DNA of 20,119 nt from a virus, in the UHGV virus genome UHGV-0174327, one strand, 5' to 3'. Both the position numbers and the translations under genes were made by a program. Positions 1 to 18,022 of the stretch are shown here, in pieces (the first letter of the stretch is position 1; the number at the start of each line of letters is the position of its first letter). The notes beneath the pieces were generated by a model. It made no database searches and was not told the origin of the DNA. It saw only the letters and a list, made by a program, of their open reading frames with translations.

Positions 1-1
1 G

Positions 2-259
2 TTTACTACTAATGGTTTAGCAGAAAAAAACAACATTCAACTCCCAGAAAATACATCTATAAATCATTGGGTGAAAGGGCACTTTCTTTTCTCAGCATCA
101 TTAAGATTTATAACAAACTTTTTGGCATCCATCAATAAAAAAACCTCTATATCCAAGGATAGTTTTTACGCAAACATCTTGTCTGCATTTGAGATTTTTT
201 ATACAGAAGAACATGCTGATTATAGTTATTACAATCAAAAGATAGGGGCCATCACATAA
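2..259 (+). CDS. hypothetical protein, C-terminal fragment (5' end outside window); AT-rich accessory gene convergent with phage gene S
   Basis: Frame 2 is open from the window edge to TAA at 257-259 (...FTTNGLAEKNNIQLPENTSINHWVKGHF...QKIGAIT); ORF-track entry 71..259 is the tail of this frame; strongly AT-rich unlike the phage backbone. Confidence 0.35.
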   Translation, partial: FTTNGLAEKNNIQLPENTSINHWVKGHFLFSASLRFITNFLASINKKTSISKDSFYANILSAFEIFYTEEHADYSYYNQKIGAIT

Positions 260-267
260 AAAATAAA

Positions 268-287
268 GGCTGGCTTTTATGCCAGCC
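268..287. terminator. hairpin GGCTGGC-ttttat-GCCAGCC between convergent genes (overlaps the S stop codon)
   Basis: Perfect 7-bp inverted repeat with 6-nt loop seen directly; A/T-rich flanks on both sides. Confidence 0.35.
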
Positions 288-735
288 AATCCCCAGAAAA
301 TAAATTCATAATGAATATTTTTCGAATTAATTTTTCACATCCATTTAATCCAAGCAATTTTCTCTCTGCGTAACGGATCTCAGGTCCTTTGCGGCTGACG
401 CGATCACGTAGGCCGTAATGGTGAACGCGGGCAATGCGCTGTACCTTACCTTCAAACTGTACGCTGGCAGTATCCGCGCTGGCGGCAGTTTTCAGGTATT
501 TTGTAGTGCGCAGCTTTGTAAACATCTGACGTTTGATCCGCCCCTTTTTACTGCGTGCTGTTACCCGTCGCGGTTCATAGCTGCTGCCGTCAGGGTTGCG
601 CTGCATCCTGATATTATGCTGCTGTGTCCGGCGCAGTTCCTGCGACAGCTGGCGCATCATGCGGCTTCTTGCGGCTGGTTCTAGATTCGCCAGCAAGGCA
701 CTCAGCCAGTCGTCCACCTTCTGCAGTTCAGCCAC
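277..735 (-). CDS. S: tail completion / virion morphogenesis protein (P2 gpS family); GTG start overlapping R stop; last ~25 codons are AT-rich and may be replaced
   Basis: Translation MAELQKVDDWLSAL...QRNPDGSSYEPRRV...RIARVHHYGLRD matches the P2 S family as I recall it; position after R in P2 order. Confidence 0.75.
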   Translation of the reverse strand: MAELQKVDDWLSALLANLEPAARSRMMRQLSQELRRTQQHNIRMQRNPDGSSYEPRRVTARSKKGRIKRQMFTKLRTTKYLKTAASADTASVQFEGKVQRIARVHHYGLRDRVSRKGPEIRYAERKLLGLNGCEKLIRKIFIMNLFSGDWLA

Positions 736-6238: not shown

Positions 6239-8005
6239 ATGAACACCACACTGACACCCGCAGATCTCGATCCCCGTCGGCAGGCCATGCTGCTGTACTT
6301 TCAGGGATACCGCGTCGCCCGCATTGCTGAAATGCTGGGCGAGAAAGTTGCAACTGTTCACAGCTGGAAAAAACGCGACAAGTGGGGTGACTATGGGCCG
6401 CTGGATCAGATGCAGCTCACCACCGCCGCACGCTACTGCCAGCTCATTATGAAGGAGCACAAAGAAGGGAAAGATTTCAAAGAGATTGACCTGCTGGCGC
6501 GCCAGTCGGAGCGCCACGCGCGGATCGGCAAGTTTAACAATGGCGGCAACGAAGCCGACTTAAACCCTAACGTCGCCAACCGCAACAAAGGCCCACGCCG
6601 TCAGCCGGAAAAGAATGTTTTCACCGATGAACAGATTGAGAAGCTGGAAGAAATCTTCCATTCCTCCATGTTCAACTACCAGCGCCACTGGTGGGAAGCC
6701 GGAAAAACCAACCGCATCCGCAACCTGCTGAAGTCACGCCAGATCGGCGCAACCTTCTATTTTGCCCGTGAAGCCCTGATTGACGCCCTGCTGACCGGAC
6801 GTAACCAGATTTTCCTTTCCGCCAGCAAGGCACAGGCCCACGTCTTTAAGCAGTACATCTTCGACTTCGCCAAAGAAGTGGAGGTGGAGCTGAAAGGTGA
6901 TCCGATGGTGCTTCCTAACGGTGCCACGCTTTACTTCCTCGGCACCAATGCCCGCACTGCCCAGAGTTATCACGGCAACCTGTATCTGGATGAATATTTC
7001 TGGATACCGAAATTTCAGGAGCTGCGTAAAGTGGCTTCCGGTATGGCTATTCACAAAAAATGGCGACAAACCTATTTTTCCACGCCATCAAGCCTGACCC
7101 ACAGTGCTTATCCGTTCTGGTCCGGTGCGCTGTTCAACCGTGGACGCAACAAAGCCGACAAGGTGGACATCGACCTGTCCCACAGCAATCTGGCCCCCGG
7201 CCTGCTGTGCGCAGACGGGCAATACCGCCAGATAGTCACCGTGGAAGATGCGGTGCGCGGCGGCTGCAACCTGTTCGACCTTGACCAGTTGCGCATGGAG
7301 TACAGCCCGGACGAATACCAGAACCTGCTGATGTGCGAGTTTGTGGACGATCTCGCGTCCGTGTTTCCGCTCAGCGAGCTGCAGGCGTGCATGGTGGACA
7401 GTTGGGAAGTCTGGACCGACTTTCATGCACTGGCCCTTCGCCCGTTTGGGTGGCGCGAAGTGTGGATCGGTTATGACCCGGCAAAAGGTACGCAGAACGG
7501 CGACAGCGCCGGATGCGTGGTGGTGGCACCGCCAGCCGTGCCGGGCGGTAAGTTCCGTATTCTTGAGCGCCACCAGTGGCGCGGGATGGACTTCCGCGCC
7601 CAGGCGGACGCCATCAAAAAACTGACCGAACAGTACAACGTGACATATATCGGCATCGACTCGACGGGTGTCGGTCACGGGGTTTACGAGAACGTGAAAG
7701 CGTTTTTTCCTGCCGTCCGGGAGTTTGTCTACAACCCCAACGTTAAAAATGCCCTGGTACTCAAGGCATACGACATTATCAGCCACCGCCGTCTGGAGTT
7801 TGACGCCGGGCACACCGACATTGCGCAGTCATTCATGGCAATCCGTCGCGCCACCACCGCCAGTGGCAACCGCCCGACCTATGAAGCCAGCCGCAGCGAA
7901 GAAGCCAGCCACGCCGATCTGGCCTGGGCAACGATGCACGCACTGTTTAATGAACCGCTGCAGGGCGAGTCCGCCAATACAAGCAATATTGTGGAGATTT
8001 TTTGA
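6239..8005 (+). CDS. P: terminase large (ATPase) subunit (P2 gpP family)
   Basis: 588 aa; family-typical length and sequence; divergent from O as in P2. Confidence 0.9.
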   Translation: MNTTLTPADLDPRRQAMLLYFQGYRVARIAEMLGEKVATVHSWKKRDKWGDYGPLDQMQLTTAARYCQLIMKEHKEGKDFKEIDLLARQSERHARIGKFNNGGNEADLNPNVANRNKGPRRQPEKNVFTDEQIEKLEEIFHSSMFNYQRHWWEAGKTNRIRNLLKSRQIGATFYFAREALIDALLTGRNQIFLSASKAQAHVFKQYIFDFAKEVEVELKGDPMVLPNGATLYFLGTNARTAQSYHGNLYLDEYFWIPKFQELRKVASGMAIHKKWRQTYFSTPSSLTHSAYPFWSGALFNRGRNKADKVDIDLSHSNLAPGLLCADGQYRQIVTVEDAVRGGCNLFDLDQLRMEYSPDEYQNLLMCEFVDDLASVFPLSELQACMVDSWEVWTDFHALALRPFGWREVWIGYDPAKGTQNGDSAGCVVVAPPAVPGGKFRILERHQWRGMDFRAQADAIKKLTEQYNVTYIGIDSTGVGHGVYENVKAFFPAVREFVYNPNVKNALVLKAYDIISHRRLEFDAGHTDIAQSFMAIRRATTASGNRPTYEASRSEEASHADLAWATMHALFNEPLQGESANTSNIVEIF

Positions 8006-9051
8006 TGGGAAAGAGTAAGAAAAACCGCGCTGCGGCGATGAATCACATCCAGCATAAAAGCCAGACTTCAGCCGAAGCATTCAGCTTCGGCGATCCCGTT
8101 CCTGTTCTGGACCGCCGAGAATTACTGGACTATGTGGAATGCGTACAGATGGACCGTTGGTATGAGCCGCCCGTCAGCTTTGACGGACTGGCGCGCACCT
8201 TCCGCGCCGCCGTGCATCACAGTTCCCCGATTGCAGTAAAGTGCAACATTCTGACCAGTACCTATATCCCTCATCCGCTGCTCAGCCAGCAGGCTTTTTC
8301 GCGTTTTGTGCAGGACTATCTGGTATTTGGTAACGCCTACCTGGAGAAACGCACGAACCGCTTCGGTGAAGTTATCGCCCTTGAACCGACCCTGGCAAAA
8401 TACACCCGACGCGGATTAGACCTGGATACCTACTGGTTTGTGCAATACGGCATGACTACGCAGCCGTATCAGTTCACGAAAGGCAGCATTTTTCATCTGA
8501 TGGAACCGGACATCAACCAGGAGATCTACGGCCTGCCCGGTTATCTTTCTGCCATTCCGTCAGCCCTGCTCAACGAGTCCGCCACGCTGTTCCGCCGCAA
8601 GTATTACATTAACGGCAGTCATGCAGGCTTCATCATGTACATGACCGATGCAGCGCAGAACCAGGAGGATGTGAACAACCTCCGCAATGCGATGAAAAGC
8701 GCCAAAGGTCCTGGTAACTTCCGTAACCTGTTTATGTACTCGCCTAACGGTAAAAAGGACGGGCTTCAGATTATCCCGTTGTCAGAAGTGGCGGCGAAGG
8801 ATGAGTTCCTGAATATCAAGAACGTGAGCCGGGACGACATGATGGCGGCGCATCGTGTGCCGCCACAAATGATGGGGATAATGCCTAATAATGTCGGGGG
8901 GTTTGGGGATGTAGAAAAGGCAAGCCGTGTCTTTGTCCGCAACGAGTTGATACCTCTGCAGAAACGCCTACAGGAACTTAACAACTGGCTGGGCGATGAA
9001 GTTATACGTTTCGAGCCGTACACTTTAGATATTCAGAATGAAAAGAAATAA
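8005..9051 (+). CDS. Q: portal protein (P2 gpQ family)
   Basis: ATG at 8005 overlaps P stop (TGATG); 348 aa; sequence and length fit P2 Q. Confidence 0.9.
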   Translation: MGKSKKNRAAAMNHIQHKSQTSAEAFSFGDPVPVLDRRELLDYVECVQMDRWYEPPVSFDGLARTFRAAVHHSSPIAVKCNILTSTYIPHPLLSQQAFSRFVQDYLVFGNAYLEKRTNRFGEVIALEPTLAKYTRRGLDLDTYWFVQYGMTTQPYQFTKGSIFHLMEPDINQEIYGLPGYLSAIPSALLNESATLFRRKYYINGSHAGFIMYMTDAAQNQEDVNNLRNAMKSAKGPGNFRNLFMYSPNGKKDGLQIIPLSEVAAKDEFLNIKNVSRDDMMAAHRVPPQMMGIMPNNVGGFGDVEKASRVFVRNELIPLQKRLQELNNWLGDEVIRFEPYTLDIQNEKK

Positions 9052-9079
9052 AAGTTAGCGAATAAAAATCATTAGCATA

Positions 9080-9098
9080 GGCCGCAAACTGAGCGGCC
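9080..9098. terminator. bidirectional hairpin terminator between portal (+) and the 89-aa gene (-)
   Basis: GGCCGC-aaactga-GCGGCC followed by T-rich tract on + strand and by A/T-rich run on - strand. Confidence 0.45.
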
Positions 9099-9105
9099 TT
9101 ATTCA

Positions 9106-9375
9106 TTACCAATTTCTTTTTTCGGAGTTTAGCCAATCACCGCATGGATAATATCTTGACGCCCATTCACCTTGTAAACGAGCTACAAACAGAATATCGT
9201 TACTATCGACCCTGGCTTGGAGTCCGTCACGCAGTTGAGTTGCGGTCAGCGTTGTATCTACTAACCAAAATGATTCAAGATATTTACAGTATGTAAATTG
9301 CTTTAGATAGTCAAAAACTTCATCGTAGTTTCTTCCCGGAGCCTTCAAGTCATAGGTTATACAATAAATAGCCAT
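9106..9375 (-). CDS. hypothetical 89-aa soluble protein (accessory cassette B, distal gene)
   Basis: MAIYCITYDLKAPGRNYDEVFDYLKQF...DSNDILFVARL; AT-rich; 3 nt downstream of the zinc-ribbon ORF; alternating beta/alpha pattern vaguely reminiscent of VapD/Cas2-like small proteins (unverified). Confidence 0.55.
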   Translation of the reverse strand: MAIYCITYDLKAPGRNYDEVFDYLKQFTYCKYLESFWLVDTTLTATQLRDGLQARVDSNDILFVARLQGEWASRYYPCGDWLNSEKRNW

Positions 9376-9378
9376 TCT

Positions 9379-9561
9379 CTAAGCTCCGCATTTTTTATCA
9401 TTTGGGGAACATCTTAACCTGCGACATTTGCGGCAATACGATTGAGGGATCAGCCGCTCTCCTTCCATAGTTCTAAAACCAAACACTTCTTCAATTTTGT
9501 TCAAATCACCACTTGCAATAACCCCACAGCAGGGGCAGACAGCCTCAATTTGAAATGCCAT
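9379..9561 (-). CDS. hypothetical ~60-aa zinc-ribbon protein (accessory cassette B, proximal gene)
   Basis: MAFQIEAVCPCCGV...CRKCRRLRC with CxxC...CxxC spacing; ATG at 9561 preceded by GGAGA (spacing 5); ORF-track start 9624 is an upstream extension. Confidence 0.5.
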   Translation of the reverse strand: MAFQIEAVCPCCGVIASGDLNKIEEVFGFRTMEGERLIPQSYCRKCRRLRCSPNDKKCGA

Positions 9562-9660
9562 GTCTATCTCCATTCCACATGTTGAATGTAGGGTAATACT
9601 TCCTTTCAAGCAAAAATGAGACAAGGATCTTGAAACCTAATTTAAACTTGCTTGCGCGCG

Positions 9661-9679
9661 CTCGTATCCCCGCCACGCC
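9661..9679 (-). other. cos-like site (cohesive-end sequence) of the prophage
   Basis: Reverse complement reads GGCGTGGCGGGGATACGAG followed by CGCGCGC; the P2/P4 cohesive end as I recall it is GGCGAGGCGGGGAAAGCAC followed by TGCGCGC (14/19 identical); location downstream of portal Q is where P2 has cos. Confidence 0.45.
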
Positions 9680-9714
9680 TGCCCGCTTTTTGTAGCGATT
9701 TTCATGCAGGTGCA

Positions 9715-9748
9715 TGACATAAGCAAAAGCCCACCAGAACTGGCGGGC
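9715..9748 (-). terminator. rho-independent terminator ending the three-gene cassette A
   Basis: Stem GCCCACCAG/CTGGCGGGC (one mismatch) followed on the minus strand by UUUUGCUU. Confidence 0.4.
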
Positions 9749-9796
9749 CTCAGCAAAAACGATCCTCAAACGATCATGCATATTCATGCGGCATAG

Positions 9797-10306
9797 TCAT
9801 GCAGTGACTTTGGTCTGGTCAGGCGTAGAAAAATCTTCGAAAGATTTATAAGTTTCAGTATCAAATATTGAAATACTCTCAACCTGATCCATTGGGATTA
9901 CATGCCTAAAATGATTTAAGTTCAGTGGAGTTGAGTCTGCTGTAATATTTTTACTAAGGTAAAGTTCATAGTAACGATGCTGCTCATGGTATCTGAGCGT
10001 ATCTTTATCACGATAACCACTGATGTATGGTATGAGAGCCAGATGCTGAGTTTCCTGATGCTCCATCCGAGGAGCAGCTACGTAACCAATGTAAACTTTT
10101 CTGGATTTTAGCGTAACAAAGATGAGCTTACCTTCATCTATAGCCTGAACTAACAGTGACTCAATTCCATCTTGAGCTGCCATCTCGCGATATGCAGATT
10201 GACGAATCTCTTCGTTTTCTATTGCTCTTCGCGCATTGTTACCTTGGTCATAAGCAATAAACACCGCAAGCAGCATAGACAACACAAAGAACAATGGGTA
10301 AGACAT
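9797..10306 (-). CDS. hypothetical ~169-aa protein with N-terminal TM helix and soluble C-terminal domain (cassette A, gene 3)
   Basis: MSYPLFFVLSMLLAVFIAY then hydrophilic domain; start at ATG 10306 five nt after the gene-2 stop (ORF-track 10342 is a GTG extension overlapping gene 2); AT-rich. Confidence 0.55.
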   Translation of the reverse strand: MSYPLFFVLSMLLAVFIAYDQGNNARRAIENEEIRQSAYREMAAQDGIESLLVQAIDEGKLIFVTLKSRKVYIGYVAAPRMEHQETQHLALIPYISGYRDKDTLRYHEQHRYYELYLSKNITADSTPLNLNHFRHVIPMDQVESISIFDTETYKSFEDFSTPDQTKVTA

Positions 10307-10311
10307 TATCT

Positions 10312-10578
10312 TTACGTCTGTGAGCCATGAATAAAAGTCCACATGTAACTTAGGCCAAAAATAACCAAAAAATTGATAACTGAGCTTATAACTAGCAAGG
10401 TAACGAATGTAACAGCCATCAGAGTAAACCCCTGAATAGCAAACTTACAACCATGCATAGCTACATAAAAATAGGAATTCCAACCATTACTTCTTGCTTG
10501 CCTGATGCGGGACTGGTAATGATTTTCGGTGTACCAGAACCCGCAAACCAGGACGACCATGATAACTAAGGGTCCCAT
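10312..10578 (-). CDS. hypothetical 88-aa integral membrane protein, two predicted TM segments (cassette A, gene 2)
   Basis: PLVIMVVLVCGFWY and FTLMAVTFVTLLVISSVINFLVIFGLSYMW hydrophobic stretches; start coupled to gene-1 stop (AAGGATGAGGAATG). Confidence 0.55.
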   Translation of the reverse strand: MGPLVIMVVLVCGFWYTENHYQSRIRQARSNGWNSYFYVAMHGCKFAIQGFTLMAVTFVTLLVISSVINFLVIFGLSYMWTFIHGSQT

Positions 10579-10581
10579 TCC

Positions 10582-10782
10582 TCATCCTTGTCGTTTTGCA
10601 GCCAATTCTTCCATTCTGGCACGCATTGATTCACGTACCTGCTTATTGTTCATGTTTAAGGTCGCCGCACCATTAGCATCTGTGATAATTTTACTATTAT
10701 CAGACTGTTGCACATCCTGACGGATGACATCCTGCATAATCTTACCTGGTGCAGAGAGAACTTTGCGCAGAAGTTCAGACAT
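10582..10782 (-). CDS. hypothetical 66-aa hydrophilic protein (cassette A, gene 1)
   Basis: MSELLRKVLSAPGKIMQDVIRQ...; ATG at 10782 preceded by AAGGAGG (spacing 5); ORF-track start 10857 is an upstream extension. Confidence 0.5.
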   Translation of the reverse strand: MSELLRKVLSAPGKIMQDVIRQDVQQSDNSKIITDANGAATLNMNNKQVRESMRARMEELAAKRQG

Positions 10783-10835
10783 ATTTTCCTCCTTATGCCT
10801 CAAACGCCACGGATTGTGGTGCATGGAAGCTGTCA

Positions 10836-10880
10836 TCTTATGATTATAGGACAACAAAAATACGAAACTATTCGAAGAGT
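10836..10880 (-). promoter_or_regulatory. candidate sigma70 promoter for cassette A (perfect TATAAT -10 on minus strand at 10848..10843)
   Basis: Minus strand reads ...ttgttgtccTATAATcataag...; -35 is weak (TAGTTT); about 55-nt leader to the ATG at 10782. Confidence 0.3.
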
Positions 10881-11001
10881 GCTACGTATTAACCTATTTA
10901 CATATCACCCTGCAACCAATTTATCCATAACTAACGCCTCGCACGGCTCGTTGCTCAACCTTGCGAACGGTAAAAACCAGTTTTATCGTCCGCAACGTTC
11001 C

Positions 11002-11232
11002 CTAATGTAACCAGCTGTCGTCTTCCCACACCTTCTGCATAATTTTCATCACTTGCTTCCTTTCTTCGTCCAGTTGCAGTCCGGTCAGTTCCACACCGTT
11101 AGAGCTACCTTTGCGGATACGAATTACCGTTTTGGGATACAGGGGGCGCAGATTGCGGTAAAGCTCGGATTCAAGGGCGTCCAGTGTAGACTGGCTAATC
11201 TTCTGCTCTTTATCGATCATTATTTCAATGCG
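11002..11232 (-). CDS. dinI: DinI-family protein (SOS-regulated RecA modulator homologue)
   Basis: MRIEIMIDKEQKISQSTLDALESELYRNLRPLYPKTVIRIRKGSSNGVELTGLQLDEERKQVMKIMQKVWEDDSWLH parallels E. coli DinI (MRIEVTIAK...WESADDW) as recalled; SD GAGGTGA; downstream of a LexA box. Confidence 0.7.
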   Translation of the reverse strand, partial: RIEIMIDKEQKISQSTLDALESELYRNLRPLYPKTVIRIRKGSSNGVELTGLQLDEERKQVMKIMQKVWEDDSWLH

Positions 11233-11245
11233 CATAAAAGTCACC

Positions 11246-11434
11246 TCAGCTGATGACATCCATTGAGCGGTTGTATTCGTGGGTTCTGATTTTTGCCATG
11301 AGTTCATCTGTTAGTTCAGAAACCCACTGCAAAGCCAGCCCCTTCTCTTCATCACTACACTCACTAGCCGCTACAAGCTTAAGAAAAAAATCAATGCGCT
11401 GGAGCTTCAAAGACTCCAAAAAATAGTCCTGCAT
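11246..11434 (-). CDS. hypothetical 62-aa protein, first gene of the LexA-controlled operon (possible Tum-like antirepressor, speculative)
   Basis: ATG at 11434 preceded by AGGAGGAAAG; about 45 nt downstream of a canonical LexA box; position corresponds to the 186 tum locus. Confidence 0.45.
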   Translation of the reverse strand: MQDYFLESLKLQRIDFFLKLVAASECSDEEKGLALQWVSELTDELMAKIRTHEYNRSMDVIS

Positions 11435-11474
11435 CTTTCCTCCTATGACACCAAAGCAATACTGTATACATAAC

Positions 11475-11494
11475 CACTGTTTATATTTACAGTA
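11475..11494. promoter_or_regulatory. LexA operator (SOS box) overlapping the promoter of the 62-aa/dinI-like operon
   Basis: CTGT-ttatattt-ACAG (11477..11492) fits CTGT-N8-ACAG with AT-rich spacer; a weaker overlapping CTGT-N8-CCAC half-match at 11462..11477; TATACT -10-like hexamer adjacent on minus strand. Confidence 0.6.
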
Positions 11495-11586
11495 TATAAT
11501 AATCTTACTGATGTAAAACGTTTTTTTACGTTCATCAGCCTGATATGCCTGGTATTATTAAGAGCACGAATTGTTAACCCGCGTAA

Positions 11587-11943
11587 TTAATACAGGTTCC
11601 GCCACTTATCATCTTCCTTCAGACGCTGGTTCCGATAGAAGATACGCAGGCCTGCTCCTGACGGAATACTGCCACCGCGAAGGAGTAAATCGACCTCTTT
11701 CTCGCTGCCATCAAATCCTCTGGACTTCAGTTCATAGACGAGCTGCTGTCGTTGATGGTCTGTAATTCGCTGTTTGTAGTCTCTACGCCGTTTCGGTTTC
11801 ACCAGGCGTAACCTTACAGCCAGCTCCCGGCGCTCTTTTTTGTTCATACTGTGCAGAAAATCGTGCAACTCCTTGTCATCCATGCGGGTAATATCCGTTC
11901 TGGTGTCCCCATCAGCTGATTTATCTTTCTCCTGTTGGTTCAA
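11587..11943 (-). CDS. hypothetical basic protein downstream of and overlapping replication gene A; start uncertain (TTG 11943, or ATG 11883)
   Basis: Lys/Arg-rich ([22 protein letters not shown]); no strong SD at any candidate start; conserved position after A in P2-like phages. Confidence 0.4.
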
Positions 11944-14027
11944 ATTTTCAGCAAGGGGACAGTTATTGCCACGAGTCCAAGGGGACAGTTATTGCCACGA
12001 GTCCAAGGGGCGCAAGCGCCCTGGTCGGCTGCCGCCTCCTGAACGTCAACGGCCTTACGAACCATTTTCCACTTCACTGCATGAGTGCAGATCTTGCCCT
12101 CTGCAATGGGTGACCAGATGCCATAAATACGAATACCGTGATCACCATAGGCGGTCGGCTCTTCGTTGATTTCATAAGCGGTTCTGATCAAGTGATATTT
12201 GCGGGGAACCAACACGCCGCCCTGCTTCATAATGTAGGTGGCAAAACAGCCAGCATCAGCAGCAGCCAGAATGGCATCAAGACGCGGATCATCCAGTACC
12301 GGCGCACCTGCTTTTTTGTCACCCTGCTGCCTTGCCGCCTGACCAGCCAGCAATCGCAGTTCACGGTAAGCCTGACGCCCCGGAATGCCAAAGAAGCGGA
12401 ATTGCTGAACACGATGCAGAGACGCCCAGGCATTAACGTATTCAGCGTTATCACGCAGGGATTTACCCGTTTCCTTGCTGATCTCGCCAGCCAGACCACG
12501 CCCGTCAATGTTCTTACTGATGTATTTCGCGATGTAGCTTGTCGGCGTTCCTTTGCGCGGGTTAATCAGCTCAGACTTAAAGCGTGGCCCCGTGTTATTG
12601 CCCAGTTCCTCGCGGTCTTCACGGATGGCAAACTTACGCAGTAATGCAGTGATGGCGCGGCGGTCTTTTTTACGCATGAAGCACATGAGATGCCAGTGCA
12701 CAGTACCGTCATGATGCGGCTCAGCCACCCGCACGCCATACCACCGCAATCCGGCTTTGTGCATCGCCTTACGAAATGCAGCAAACATGCCGACCAGATA
12801 ATCACTGCTTTGTCTTACCGTCGCATTTGTCCAGGTCGGGTTTGGTCTGCCGTTATTGAGCGTGGAATGGAAACGTGACGGACAGGTGATGGTGTAGAAA
12901 ACGGCGCAGTCACCGCGCATTTCCGCGATAAGCTCCAGACCTTTAACGCAGGCCATCATCTCATTGCGGCGATGTGCCGGGTTGCTGCTGCTGGCGTTTA
13001 CCACATCTTCCATATCCAGCGTGTCTCCGTCTTCGTTCACCAGTTCATGAGAACGGAAAAACTCCAGCGACTTGCGGCGCTGCTCACGTTTATGCGTCAC
13101 TGCTTCATAGCTGACATAGGGAGATGCTTTTTTGCTGACCAGACAGACAGCACGCAACTGCTCTTCCCGCCATTCGCAACGCATCTTCCACAATTTTCGA
13201 TACCACCAGTCGGCGCAAAGCATACGTGCCAGCGAACCCGGTATGAGTTCATAGGGCACAGGTTTGCGGCGGTTTCTTTTCCGACGAAGTTTCTCAAACG
13301 CAGGCGGGATAACATCCAGACGCAGGGTTTCCGCAGCCACCTTTTCCCATGTCTTGCGGATTTCTTCTGGCTTAACGTCATCGGTGGCGTACAAATCACC
13401 ACAAGCGGCCTCAAGACACATGCTCATATGCGCTGCTACCAGGGTGGACAGGCGTTTCACCTGATCCTGGCTCATTTCAGGCAGGATCAGCAGCCCCTCC
13501 AGCCCTTGATGGCTTGCCATAAAACGGAAAGAAACAGATAGCTGACTGTCACGTACACAATCCAGTCGCTCCAGACATGGCTTAATCGTCTCACGCAAAT
13601 AGCGGGAATAAGCCTTTGGCCTGCCCAGGCTGCTGAAGTATTCGATACGTTGCATCAGCGGCTTGCTGATATGAGAAGGCTGGGCGCTGACATCTGCCAG
13701 AATGACCATGTCCGGGTTAAAACGCTGCTGCTCATGCGCCAGCTTTGCCCGGCTAATGAGCTTATCCTGCTCCATTTCGCGCTGGACAGGATCACGGGAT
13801 TCATTAAAGAAATAACGCTCCCAGACCTGCTCACTCAGTGCCTCGCGGCGCAGTTGTTCCTGCTCGTTATCGGCAGCGTACAGAGTGATCAGGTTTGAAA
13901 GTGCAGACTCCGGCGCAACTTCCGCCGGATCCAGATAAGGGTTAATGGCCTTTTTCGGGCCGTTCCATGAAAATGCTGCGGCAGCCTCGTTAAAGCCGCT
14001 AGAGTTGCTCATATCGTCATGACTCAT
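11940..14027 (-). CDS. A: replication initiation endonuclease (P2/186 gpA family, rolling-circle initiator)
   Basis: 695 aa, size and sequence consistent with 186/P2 A; ATG at 14027 overlaps dam stop (ATGA). Confidence 0.85.
11952..12010. repeat. tandem direct repeat, 26 bp x 2.3 (CAAGGGGACAGTTATTGCCACGAGTC) inside the 3' end of gene A
   Basis: Copies at 11952..11977 and 11978..12003 are identical; partial third copy CAAGGGG at 12004..12010, followed by palindrome GGGCGCaaGCGCCC. Confidence 0.85.
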
Positions 14028-14881
14028 ACACGCACCTCGTACACAGCAGAACTATCCACGCCACGCGAAGGATCAAATCCCATCCAGCAGCGCGACCCGG
14101 AAACAGCAATGATTTCTGTTGCAGATTTACTCTCGCCAGCTGACACGCCGATGCTGCGTTTTGCCTTGATGTAGTGGTGAGTGAAATTGCGATACAGCGA
14201 ACGGATCAGGGATGTGTCACTGTTAGAAACAATGACCGGATGACCTTCTGATGATCGATATTCAAGAACGGATGCCAGGTGATACTGGTCATCTTCAGTG
14301 AAGCCGTCAGTGTGATAACCGGAAAACGTGCCGTCATACGGCGGATCGCAATACACCACATCCCCCGCCTTCAACATCGCCAGCGTTTCATCAAAGCTGG
14401 CGCAGATAAACGTTGCTCGCTGGGCCTTTTCTGCAAATGCGTGAATTTCTTTTTCAGGGAAATACGGATTTTTATAATTACCGTAGGGAATGTTGAAATG
14501 CCCGCTCTTGTTATAGCGACATAAACCACGGTAACCGTGACGATTGAGATACAGGAAATATACCGCTTTCATGAAATCAGTAATTTCAGTTGAGTAATTA
14601 AACTCCTGCCTTATGTTGTAATAAGCTAGGTCACTGTTTGCTTCCTCAAACAAAGTTCTGGTCCGCGATATAAACGCCTCGCAATCAGCGGCAATCTTTT
14701 TATAGAGGTTGATTAAATCAGGATTAATATCCGCAACCAGATAGCTGGGGTAATCCGTCTCCATCATCACAGCACAGGAACCCGCGAAAGGTTCAACCAG
14801 TCGCGGGCCAGCAGGTAGGTATTTTTTCAGTTCGGACATAATTGCGGTTTTATTTCCCGCCCATTTCAGGATGGTGCTCAT
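14024..14881 (-). CDS. dam: DNA adenine methyltransferase (Dam-family, DPPY motif)
   Basis: [11 protein letters not shown]...EPFAGSCAV...VYCDPPY...; ATG at 14881 overlaps upstream stop; ORF-track start 14941 is an extension. Confidence 0.85.
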
Positions 14882-15344: not shown

Positions 15345-15405
15345 TTCTCCTGAATTTAGATAAAGGGATGCCCGGCGGGTTTACGCCATGAATTTTATTT
15401 ATTGG

Positions 15406-15747
15406 TTAATTCGGCATGGTTAGCCGTCTGGGAAATAAGCTCACCACTGCACGAAAATGATTCATTGCTTTAATCAACTCCCGCTTTTCGTCAGTGGTCA
15501 GCTCATTAATGCTGATGCTATGACGTTCAGCTGGAATTTTTGCCATAAAGAATATGGCAGCCAGTGCTCGTTTATTTTGTTCGTTATTGATATCCCGTGG
15601 ATCACGCATATCTTTAATAAACCGCTCAAGCTCTGACTCAATATTCAGGCCAAATACTTTCGCCCTTAACTCCGCAATGTGATTAAGTCCATTCAGGCGT
15701 TCACCGGGGCTTAATGGAACAGTCGCCGCAGCGCCATTAATTGCCAT
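15406..15747 (-). CDS. hypothetical early-operon protein
   Basis: 113-aa ORF in operon context between cII/fil and A. Confidence 0.5.
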   Translation of the reverse strand: MAINGAAATVPLSPGERLNGLNHIAELRAKVFGLNIESELERFIKDMRDPRDINNEQNKRALAAIFFMAKIPAERHSISINELTTDEKRELIKAMNHFRAVVSLFPRRLTMPN

Positions 15748-15769
15748 AATTCATATCCCCAAAACGCAA

Positions 15770-15994
15770 CTATCGTTCTTTGTTCTTACGGTAACGTTCA
15801 AGAGGAGATACATTTTTTCGTATCGTTTCTTTAACCTGCTCTCCCCGTAAAAACGTCCCATCCCTTAGCGTGAAAAAGTAACTGCCATCGCCCGACAACG
15901 ACGGATAACAACAGAGCAAATCATCTTCAGGTACTGAATAACTCTCCCCTCTGTAACGAAACTGATAAACCACTTCACTTTCCGCTGCATACAT
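15770..15994 (-). CDS. hypothetical acidic 74-aa protein (overlaps the 3' part of the Fil-like frame)
   Basis: ATG at 15994 preceded by GGAGAAAG; protein-like composition. Confidence 0.45.
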   Translation of the reverse strand: MYAAESEVVYQFRYRGESYSVPEDDLLCCYPSLSGDGSYFFTLRDGTFLRGEQVKETIRKNVSPLERYRKNKER

Positions 15995-16161
15995 TTTGAC
16001 TTTCTCCGTTTCCTCGTGGTCAATTCAGACAGCAATTCATCTTGTGAATGACATGGATGCCAGCGTTTACCATCCTCACCCATGATCCAGCCGTGACCGT
16101 AGTGCATTGCCGGGCTTTGTTTTACCAGCAGCGATGCAAATGATGGTTCTTTCGTCAGCAT
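15865..16161 (-). CDS. fil: Fil-like protein (186 fil position, immediately after cII); C-terminal extent uncertain
   Basis: MLTKEPSFASLLVKQSPAMHYGHGWIMGEDGKRWHPC... N-terminal part looks genuine; ATG at 16161 with SD GAGGTG, 7 nt after cII stop; C-terminal half is Arg/Cys-rich and overlaps the next ORF. Confidence 0.4.
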   Translation of the reverse strand: MLTKEPSFASLLVKQSPAMHYGHGWIMGEDGKRWHPCHSQDELLSELTTRKRRKSKCMQRKVKWFISFVTEGRVIQYLKMICSVVIRRCRAMAVTFSR

Positions 16162-17057: not shown

Positions 17058-17627
17058 ATGAATTTGGAGAAAGGCGGACGAGGCGCTATAGAGCGCATGG
17101 TAGAAGCTTATGGATTCAAGACTCGACAGGCGTTGTGCGATCATTTAGGAATCTCTAAAAGTACACTCGCCACACGCTACATGCGTGACTCATTCCCAGC
17201 AGAATGGGTAATCCAGTGCGCCCTTGAAACAGGCACCTCGCTTAATTGGCTCACAACCGGGCATGGTTCAAAGCAAACTTCAGGTAATACAAATACTATG
17301 GAAGTTGCTAAATATGTATTATCTGATGGGGCCTTGTGTGAAGACGGTTTTTATATTTTCGATAGAGAATTTCTACCGTCGGCATTCAAGAATCTTTTTG
17401 TAATCACAGATAATAATTCTGAATTTATTTGTGATAAGGAATTTGATGATATACGTGATGGTAAATGGGTAATAAGTATTGATGGCGAAATAACGATCCG
17501 TGACATTACTCGTTTACCCGGTGGAAGAATCTTCGTCGAGGGTGGAAACAGAGCCTTCGAATGCAAGATAGAAGATATTGAAATAATTGGTAAAATTATA
17601 AGTTTAACAGTCAAGTATGTTAAATAG
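17058..17627 (+). CDS. cI: CI immunity repressor (186-type; N-terminal HTH domain plus AT-rich C-terminal domain)
   Basis: MNLEKGGRGAIERMVEAYGFKTRQALCDHLGISKSTLATRYMRDSFPAEWVIQCALETGTSLNWLTTGHG N-terminal HTH; ATG 17058 preceded by GGAG; about 189 aa. Confidence 0.7.
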   Translation: MNLEKGGRGAIERMVEAYGFKTRQALCDHLGISKSTLATRYMRDSFPAEWVIQCALETGTSLNWLTTGHGSKQTSGNTNTMEVAKYVLSDGALCEDGFYIFDREFLPSAFKNLFVITDNNSEFICDKEFDDIRDGKWVISIDGEITIRDITRLPGGRIFVEGGNRAFECKIEDIEIIGKIISLTVKYVK

Positions 17628-17642
17628 TACCGGGAGGAAATT

Positions 17643-17834
17643 ATGCTTGGTAAGGTATTTTTTGTGGTTTTGTCATGTTCTTTGTTATTAAACCCACTAG
17701 CTACCTATGCTAGAAATTATCCCTGCTCAGGGAAAAAGGGAGGTGTTTCTCACTGTACCTCTGATGGCAAATTCGTTTGCAATGATGGAACTATTAGTAA
17801 ATCCAAAAAAATCTGTACTAAAAACTCACGATAA
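17643..17834 (+). CDS. small secreted cysteine-rich protein (signal peptide plus ~40-aa Lys/Cys-rich mature part) co-transcribed with cI
   Basis: [23 protein letters not shown] signal-peptide-like N-terminus; 4 Cys in mature region; strong SD GGGAGG 6 nt upstream; AT-rich. Confidence 0.5.
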
Positions 17835-18022
17835 CTTTTGCTTTTATATCTGCGCCTAAAATAAAAATGAGCCACAGGTTAACCGCAAAAGTTACATGCT
17901 CACATAGCAAAAAGAATAGCCTACTTCATTATGGCTTCAGTGAGATGTATGGTCGCAGGATTTCATACATTGACACTGGTTATACATACAGTAAAAATGC
18001 TCTCTATTGGAGGGCATTTTTT

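Follow-up and report, generated by a model that had tools for sequence, protein, structure and literature searches.

An AT-rich two-gene cassette for a small soluble protein and an inner-membrane protein, present as a frameshifted copy in a P2/186-like prophage

P2-like prophages of Escherichia coli carry variable cargo in a hotspot between the genes gpA and gpQ, which was defined by Rousset et al. in 2022 (PMC9122126). One entry of that survey, System #43 of Table S5B, is a 260-amino-acid (aa) protein that was counted at 93 of 18,150 loci, has no Pfam family and was assigned two transmembrane (TM) helices by Phobius ("2 TM"). The CFT073 locus is listed in Table S5A, a filter on proteins shorter than 120 aa removed a 66-aa partner, and the system was catalogued and is absent from those that were cloned and tested. 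The subject of the present work is a locus of this kind in UHGV-0174327, a viral DNA of 20,119 nucleotides (nt) that is referred to here as the window; judged from its open reading frames (ORFs) and sequence, it is a P2/186-like prophage. It contains a self-contained, mobile and AT-rich two-gene cassette (a moron), which has its own promoter and encodes a soluble 66-aa protein and a coupled 260-aa inner-membrane protein. The System #43 protein is 1-2 residues away from the intact E. coli copy of this larger protein and occupies the same gpA-gpQ locus, whereas the copy in the window is frameshifted.

Other described systems are less close. The validated 2TM + 1TM + TIR set of phage AC1 (Rst_2TM_1TM_TIR) is likewise P2-hotspot cargo with TM proteins. 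Identity with it was rejected, as blastp gives only E values of at least 0.05 over 17-31 residues and the cassette has no TIR gene. In a comparison of the cassette with the tested systems of Rousset et al. (Table S2), the "hp+hp+hp" (3HP) system proved to consist of unrelated proteins and was also set aside. An original prediction, made from the sequence of the window, had proposed an undescribed anti-phage or exclusion system at this position. The word undescribed is only partly apt, as the large protein is listed as System #43 and both proteins are in PHROGs.

Gene content and boundaries of the cassette

The original prediction had read the locus as an intact operon of three genes, for a hydrophilic protein, a protein with two TM helices and a protein with one TM helix plus a soluble domain. 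All three ORFs are present on the minus strand at the expected positions, but they represent two genes, the second of which is interrupted. The features of the cassette are as follows.

9804..10930, no strand assigned: whole cassette, 1,127 bp that are missing from an "empty-site" P2-like prophage
10582..10782, minus: gene 1, ORF of 66 aa, open and intact, soluble protein (WP_001292590, phrog_22451), with an AAGGAGG Shine-Dalgarno (SD) sequence
9797..10578, minus: gene 2, 260-aa membrane protein (WP_039023285 / WP_000529102 family), pseudogene in the window
10312..10578, minus: ORF of 88 aa, 70 native N-terminal residues followed by 18 out-of-frame residues; phrog_3630 positions 1-70
9797..10342, minus: native downstream-frame ORF, 181 aa if begun at a GTG and 169 aa if begun at the internal ATG (10306); phrog_3630 positions 85-260, and phrog_23864
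10367..10372, minus: frameshift site, T6 where intact relatives have T7, from the sequence reading and the comparison with 13TMH22

The comparison with E. coli 13TMH22 is decisive for the gene count. Over 9652..11000 the window and this genome differ by exactly one base, which shortens a coding-strand T7 run to T6, and the composition of the 88-aa ORF results from this loss of one T. The downstream ORF encodes the last TM helix and an Sm-like domain. PHROG 3630, a profile of 274 positions, covers both fragments, the 88-aa ORF with its first 70 positions and the 169-aa ORF with positions 85-260. The cassette is found at no less than 99.6% identity in 16 of 5,426 complete E. coli genomes, CFT073 among them, and in every cassette-bearing E. 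coli genome inspected RefSeq annotates one coding sequence (CDS) of 783 nt and one of 201 nt. About 150 close homologues measure 255-273 aa, and approximately 2,600 distant clusters are likewise full length (240-290 aa). By this sequence comparison, a single 260-aa gene has been broken into the 88-aa and 169-aa ORFs, and the frameshifted copy in the window is probably inactive.

An intact three-gene operon that forms a new anti-phage system is accordingly all but excluded. All three ORFs are open, and the spacing between the TAA at 10314..10312 and the ATG at 10306 could permit re-initiation; a similar split, into 90 and 163 aa, is seen in Xenorhabdus vietnamensis (L074, 6001..6807; L numbers denote individual loci), near the same loop as in the window. 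Against this, the split arises from a single homopolymer base that the 16 E. coli copies retain, the protein is full length in the great majority of its relatives, the 88-aa ORF ends in out-of-frame residues, and the supposed 169-aa protein begins at an internal methionine (Met93) that no good SD sequence precedes. The large gene is also broken at three of 80 species loci (L041, L044 and L074), and these copies look like sporadic decay. The claim of translational coupling meets the same division: the stop codon of the 66-aa gene, whose AAGGAGG lies 7 nt ahead of the ATG at 10782 as predicted, is only 3 nt from the next ATG, but no such signal supports a coupled start at 10306.

A programmed frameshift or phase variation at the T run was considered and rejected, as CFT073 interrupts the run and other homologues carry different residues there. 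Because the run is not conserved, the change is read as a lesion or a homopolymer sequencing error. Replication gene A of the same prophage is also inactivated, by a 26-bp tandem duplication at 11952..11977 (two copies of CAAGGGGACAGTTATTGCCACGAGTC) that leaves ORFs of 695 and 118 aa; its relatives have a single CDS of approximately 790 aa. With gene A split in this way the prophage is probably replication-defective, and, because such a duplication is not typical of sequencing artefacts, the element is judged to be decaying. The window would thus hold a decaying copy in a decaying prophage, for which a three-gene annotation would be wrong, and intact alleles of the cassette are offered by CFT073 and 13TMH22, for example.

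The boundaries of the insertion follow from E. coli L3Cip3 (L107), where the matches to window 8902..9803 and 10931..11577 lie only 8 nt apart, which defines the 1,127-bp segment. Approximately 1,250 E. coli genomes carry the flanks and 16 of them the cassette, and ETEC4091 has a diverged variant (73% identity) in the same slot, so that empty, occupied and replaced states of the site are all on record, as is characteristic of hotspot cargo. The AT-richness named in the original prediction was borne out by the GC calculation that it had called for: the GC content is 0.407 in the cassette (GC3 0.34-0.45), compared with 0.563 in the structural genes and 0.536 in gene A. The insertion holds the promoter region and the two genes, and the terminator is supplied by the phage backbone.

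10843..10848, minus: -10 element TATAAT, putative cassette promoter, within the inserted segment, by sequence reading
10829..10855, minus: inverted repeat GTTGTC...GACAGC around the -10 element, candidate operator by sequence
9718..9751, minus: intrinsic terminator common to the phage backbone, an 11-bp GC-rich stem followed by UUUUGCUU

Both transcription signals had been predicted, and both are present. A simple sigma-70 consensus scan called no promoter at the cassette TATAAT, whose -35 element is weak; a GCTGTCCTATA(A/G)T motif occurs at the equivalent place upstream of Erwinia and Pantoea copies (L027-L030), and it is because of this conservation that the cassette promoter is retained. 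The inverted repeat that brackets the TATAAT may be an operator; in the same four loci it is kept as GCTGTC...GCAGC, with GCTGTCCTATA(A/G)T...GCAGC. A small hairpin in the 5' untranslated region precedes the SD sequence in these upstream regions. The terminator, which runs from about 9751 to 9718, folds with a z score of -2.85 over a 111-nt stretch and sits in the cos-proximal block that is conserved among P2-like phages.

Architecture of the two proteins and their relatives

An AlphaFold2 model of the intact large protein, built with 47 homologues, has a predicted local distance difference test (pLDDT) value of 85.6. It shows long helices at residues 2-29, 33-72 and 96-121, then further helices (123-149) and a barrel that spans 152-239. 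Hydrophobic windows at 43-76 and 88-113 give two clear TM segments, to which a short N-terminal one may be added. Under either TM count the C-terminal domain is placed in the cytoplasm by the positive-inside rule, as loop 1 has a charge of +4. According to the model, a membrane part of two or three TM helices is joined by a helical linker to a small cytoplasmic beta-barrel that is Sm/LSm/WYL-like. By structural superposition the modelled domain shows the N-terminal helix and the five-stranded, strongly bent barrel of the Sm/LSm/Hfq fold. Ten residues in the barrel loops are invariant (K158, S159, R160, Y163, G165, P184, S187, G188, Y189 and R190), within the motifs LKSRKVYIG and IPxISGYRD. The membrane component foreseen by the original prediction therefore exists, but as one 260-aa protein and not as separate 2-TM and 1-TM proteins.

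In the small protein, the alignment keeps P12, D35, G38, N43 and L60. Its AlphaFold2 model has a confident C-terminal beta-hairpin and helix (pLDDT 88-95) and N-terminal helices of low confidence, and structural comparison returned no meaningful neighbour.

Neither protein, the large one taken split or intact, has a family match in Pfam or NCBIfam. The PHROG matches are strong (3630 at E 1e-60 and 23864 at E 7e-79 for the large protein, 22451 at E 1e-43 for the small one), and all three families are labelled "unknown function". Pfam gave no consistent family over all 48 members of the large-protein set, including no sequence-level match to LSM, Hfq or WYL; a profile of the 48 homologues had no match among Protein Data Bank (PDB) sequences, and Foldseek against BFVD returned nothing at E <= 1e-3. 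The fusion of the barrel to TM helices differs from characterised Sm and WYL proteins. The only approach to a named family is made by DUF6338 (PF19865), which comes close to its threshold in the TM region of distant relatives (P0258 reaches 25.1 of the required 26.5 bits, P0236 has E 0.022, and two members of alignment A1 have 0.05). The window protein itself gives no match, and DUF6338 has no assigned function; the cassette family may be called distantly DUF6338-like. Literature searches on DUF6338, and on superinfection exclusion by Sm-like TM proteins, did not point to a function.

Several known membrane proteins invite comparison. Channels of the MscS type are heptamers in which three TM helices are joined to a cytoplasmic Sm-like beta domain, and both this layout and the predicted topology are similar to the large-protein model. 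An MscS-like channel was rejected, as there is neither a Pfam MS_channel match nor a structural match to TM3 and the beta domain. Cap15 of CBASS is a TM-anchored effector with a small cytoplasmic ligand-binding domain, and TisB and DinQ are SOS-induced membrane toxins. The resemblance to these three is conceptual; it consists in a membrane part with a cytosolic barrel and in LexA boxes in part of the clade, there is no homology, and the cassette has no signal-producing enzyme. For holins and for exclusion families of the SieB and Imm types there is no Pfam match; most copies lie outside phages, and no obligate linkage to lysis or immunity genes is seen.

Distribution and possible roles of the pair

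The family comprises 2,666 clusters at 50% identity. In a sample of 80 GTDB species-representative loci, a homologous small ORF abuts or overlaps the large gene at 74. P2-like prophages carry the pair between gene A and the cos site or portal gene (the window, Salmonella L009 and the Klebsiella phage L017), lambdoid prophages between the Q antiterminator or NinG and the holin (L005, L008, L011-13), and the Mu-like Aeromonas prophage L004 between Mor/C and the endolysin; in Pseudoalteromonas phage C5a it stands beside the repressor/integrase module. Plasmids (L029, L041) carry it too, and in Aeromonas and Pantoea it stands by itself amid housekeeping genes. There are several independent chromosomal insertion sites, and some genomes hold more than one copy. 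The two genes travel together among chromosomes, plasmids and temperate phages of three kinds.

This mobility as a unit, together with the multiple copies, the tight coupling and the hotspot position, gives the pair its likeness to toxin-antitoxin and abortive-infection modules, and adjacent, co-oriented and coupled genes that travel together on mobile elements are the layout of type II toxin-antitoxin systems. HipA and other toxin-antitoxin or defence genes occasionally adjoin it. The reading that we tentatively prefer, while holding it to be well short of established, is that of a module which acts on the membrane, is gated by its partner and, where phages carry it, serves in exclusion, in abortive infection or in the manner of a toxin-antitoxin system. 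In such a mechanism the large protein would oligomerise into a ring through its Sm-like barrel, and the ring would perturb or gate the inner membrane. The small protein would bind the cytoplasmic domain by its confidently modelled hairpin-and-helix half and so restrain or trigger the large one. The pair would then act as a toxin-antitoxin-type module, which in a prophage could lead to exclusion, abortive infection or stabilisation of the element.

Several observations weigh against this preference. The small protein and the large one, the latter as split ORFs, as the intact protein and as the ETEC variant, gave no significant match to the PADLOC-DB v2 models (Old, PARIS, retrons, Gabija, Thoeris, PD-T4/PD-Lambda, PDC candidates and others), nor did 10 distant relatives; the sole hit in this set was SIR2 at chance level (E 0.034). 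Together with the negative Pfam and NCBIfam searches, this upholds the earlier statement that the proteins match no Old, Tin, PARIS, retron or Gabija-type family. The small protein has neither a DNA-binding fold (ribbon-helix-helix, helix-turn-helix or AbrB) nor another known antitoxin fold. Charge is not conserved in the family, being basic in the window (pI 9.8) and visibly acidic in chromosomal copies. Most copies are chromosomal ones of Erwiniaceae; at 63 of the 80 species loci no neighbour is a phage marker, and only four are clearly prophage. Two chromosomal sites are syntenic: pitA-yhiN-AKR-[pair]-lacI-SDR-MFS-queH in 14 Pantoea species, and MFS-[pair]-crcB in 12 genomes of Erwiniaceae (Erwinia, Pantoea and Kalamiella). 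At both, the large protein shows roughly the degree of conservation of adjacent genes such as pitA, yhiN or MFS (0.91, compared with 0.93-0.96, at the first and 0.84, compared with 0.80-0.90, at the second). A scan of the 131 genes closest to a further 24 chromosomal copies, a small sample without a formal defence score, gave strong PADLOC matches (E <= 1e-20) only to JukA, PD-Lambda-2 A/B and mad2, besides weak single matches to six further families. By Pfam, most of these genes encode transporters or metabolic enzymes, and one encodes HipA. The enrichment and the patchy, fast turnover by which defence genes betray themselves through their neighbours were not found, as 26 loci are syntenic and conserved at housekeeping level. 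Such conservation is more readily explained by an ordinary cellular function than by a role in defence or addiction.

The pair could then be an inner-membrane module of host physiology, for instance a channel or regulator linked to stress or the SOS response, which phages sometimes carry as a fitness moron and which serves neither defence nor addiction. We regard this as only slightly less likely than the module that we prefer. The scarcity of phage markers, the two syntenic groups and the metabolic character of the neighbours all speak for it. Hotspot cargo includes non-defence items such as partition systems and the CDT toxin (PMC9122126), which also agrees with it. A link to the SOS response is suggested by LexA-like boxes upstream of the small gene, which are perfect in L031 and L090, have one mismatch in L035-L038, occur also in L033 and belong mostly to the clade closest to the window. 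The cassette of the window comes after a LexA-controlled operon, and the stretch between them lacks a canonical terminator: the hairpin after the DinI-like gene (about 10995..10961) has no U-tract, so that SOS-driven read-through into the cassette is possible. Over the whole family, such boxes are found at 11 of 74 loci against a background of 10%; family-wide SOS regulation was rejected on this count, and the enrichment in the closest clade is suggestive only. Conversely, lineage-specific insertion sites, a variable copy number and the presence on plasmids and in three types of phage form the pattern of a selfish or defence module. In E. coli the pair is rare (16-18 of 5,426 complete genomes) and is confined to P2-like prophages, and the different chromosomal neighbourhoods share no functional link.

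The positions within prophages bear on another explanation, namely that the pair is an accessory of the lytic cycle (lysis timing, anti-holin action or exclusion during induction), expressed on early or late lytic transcripts rather than in the lysogen. The lambdoid copies lie next to the holin and the Mu-like copy next to the endolysin, as described above, and in 186-like prophages the pair comes after the SOS-induced Tum/DinI module in constant orientation. Between the pair and the holin of L005 there are two terminator-like hairpins and a promoter-like site, which suggests that the pair belongs to a delayed-early transcript. Such a role is nevertheless improbable, as most members stand alone in chromosomes without phage genes around them, the lysis genes of P2-like phages are distant, most P2-like prophages have no cassette, the C5a pair adjoins the repressor/integrase module, and the holin, Sie and Imm families gave no Pfam match.

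A more novel reading is that the intact pair represents a new family of anti-phage or abortive-infection systems, in which a membrane-anchored Sm/WYL-like sensor-effector would form a ring-shaped pore that is controlled by the small partner and possibly wired to the SOS response; this family would be widespread and captured repeatedly by P2-like, lambdoid and Mu-like prophages. This is unlikely on the present evidence. If the intact pair is phage-related or toxin-like, a large family of thousands of clusters would join the prophage-borne membrane effectors, System #43 of the P2 hotspot and the DUF6338 relatives would gain a function, and the stable chromosomal copies of Pantoea and Erwinia would be a rare case of vertical retention of such a module. 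The combination of TM helices, an Sm-like barrel and a small partner is an architecture that we did not find described.

The prophage around the cassette

The surroundings of the cassette in the window comprise the following features.

8002..9051, plus: portal gene Q, by ORF; the terminase gene is also on the plus strand
9106..9375, minus: 89-aa gene (phrog_1090), whose COL60J orthologue is annotated "DUF6953 family"; weak PADLOC match to Cas2/Cas2b (E 5e-4)
9379..9561, minus: 60-aa Cys-rich, zinc-ribbon-like protein (phrog_19700)
9661..9679, no strand assigned: cos-like 19-mer CTCGTATCCCCGCCACGCC, by its context the right-hand limit of the packaged genome
11002..11235, minus: DinI-like gene, an ORF downstream of the LexA box
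11246..11434, minus: 62-aa gene, an ORF downstream of the LexA box
11477..11492: perfect LexA box CTGTTTATATTTACAG, upstream of the 62-aa and DinI-like genes
11940..14027 (whole gene 11587..14027), minus: replication endonuclease gene A, by ORF

The cos-like site is present where the original prediction had placed it and aligns with the P2 cos region given in Table S2 of Rousset et al. (PMC9122126), and Fels-2, SopEPhi and P2-like phages of Klebsiella share the conserved block 9652..9803. Lying between gene A and portal gene Q, beside cos and on its A side, the cassette occupies the gpA-gpQ hotspot of that study (PMC9122126), which agrees with the cos-proximal accessory position proposed for it. 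The SOS-regulated dinI-like module alongside it was likewise recovered, with the perfect LexA box upstream of the DinI-like gene; the arrangement of box, 62-aa gene and DinI-like gene resembles the Tum-type SOS module of 186.

Among near-identical cassette-bearing E. coli prophages the variable segment is on the other side of cos, by the portal gene, and the 66 + 260 cassette remains linked to the DinI module. This Q-side slot (approximately window 9052..9650; L001, L002, L003, L014, L015 and L016) exchanges mostly defence-type cargo: TIR with a hypothetical protein, TIGR02391, AIPR or ParA. The prophage of ETEC4091, which is more divergent and bears the 73% cassette variant, has RloB with an AAA protein there. 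In the window and in COL60J it holds the DUF6953-like 89-aa gene and the 60-aa Cys-rich gene. An anti-phage or exclusion role, read from the position of the cassette, is possible, but known defence cargo swaps at the Q-side slot and the family context does not support such a role.

Three unrelated prophages have a TIR, TIR_2 or SEFIR gene no more than a few kb from the pair: the E. coli P2-like prophage L001 (1509..2857), the Mu-like L004 (3826..4617) and the P2-like L017 (4559..5992). These genes are separate cargo, and their proximity is probably a coincidence of the hotspot. Other AT-rich stretches of the prophage in the window, with a GC content of 0.33-0.44, are found at 1..400, 14400..14800, 15400..16000 and 17200..18000 and may be accessory or regulatory.

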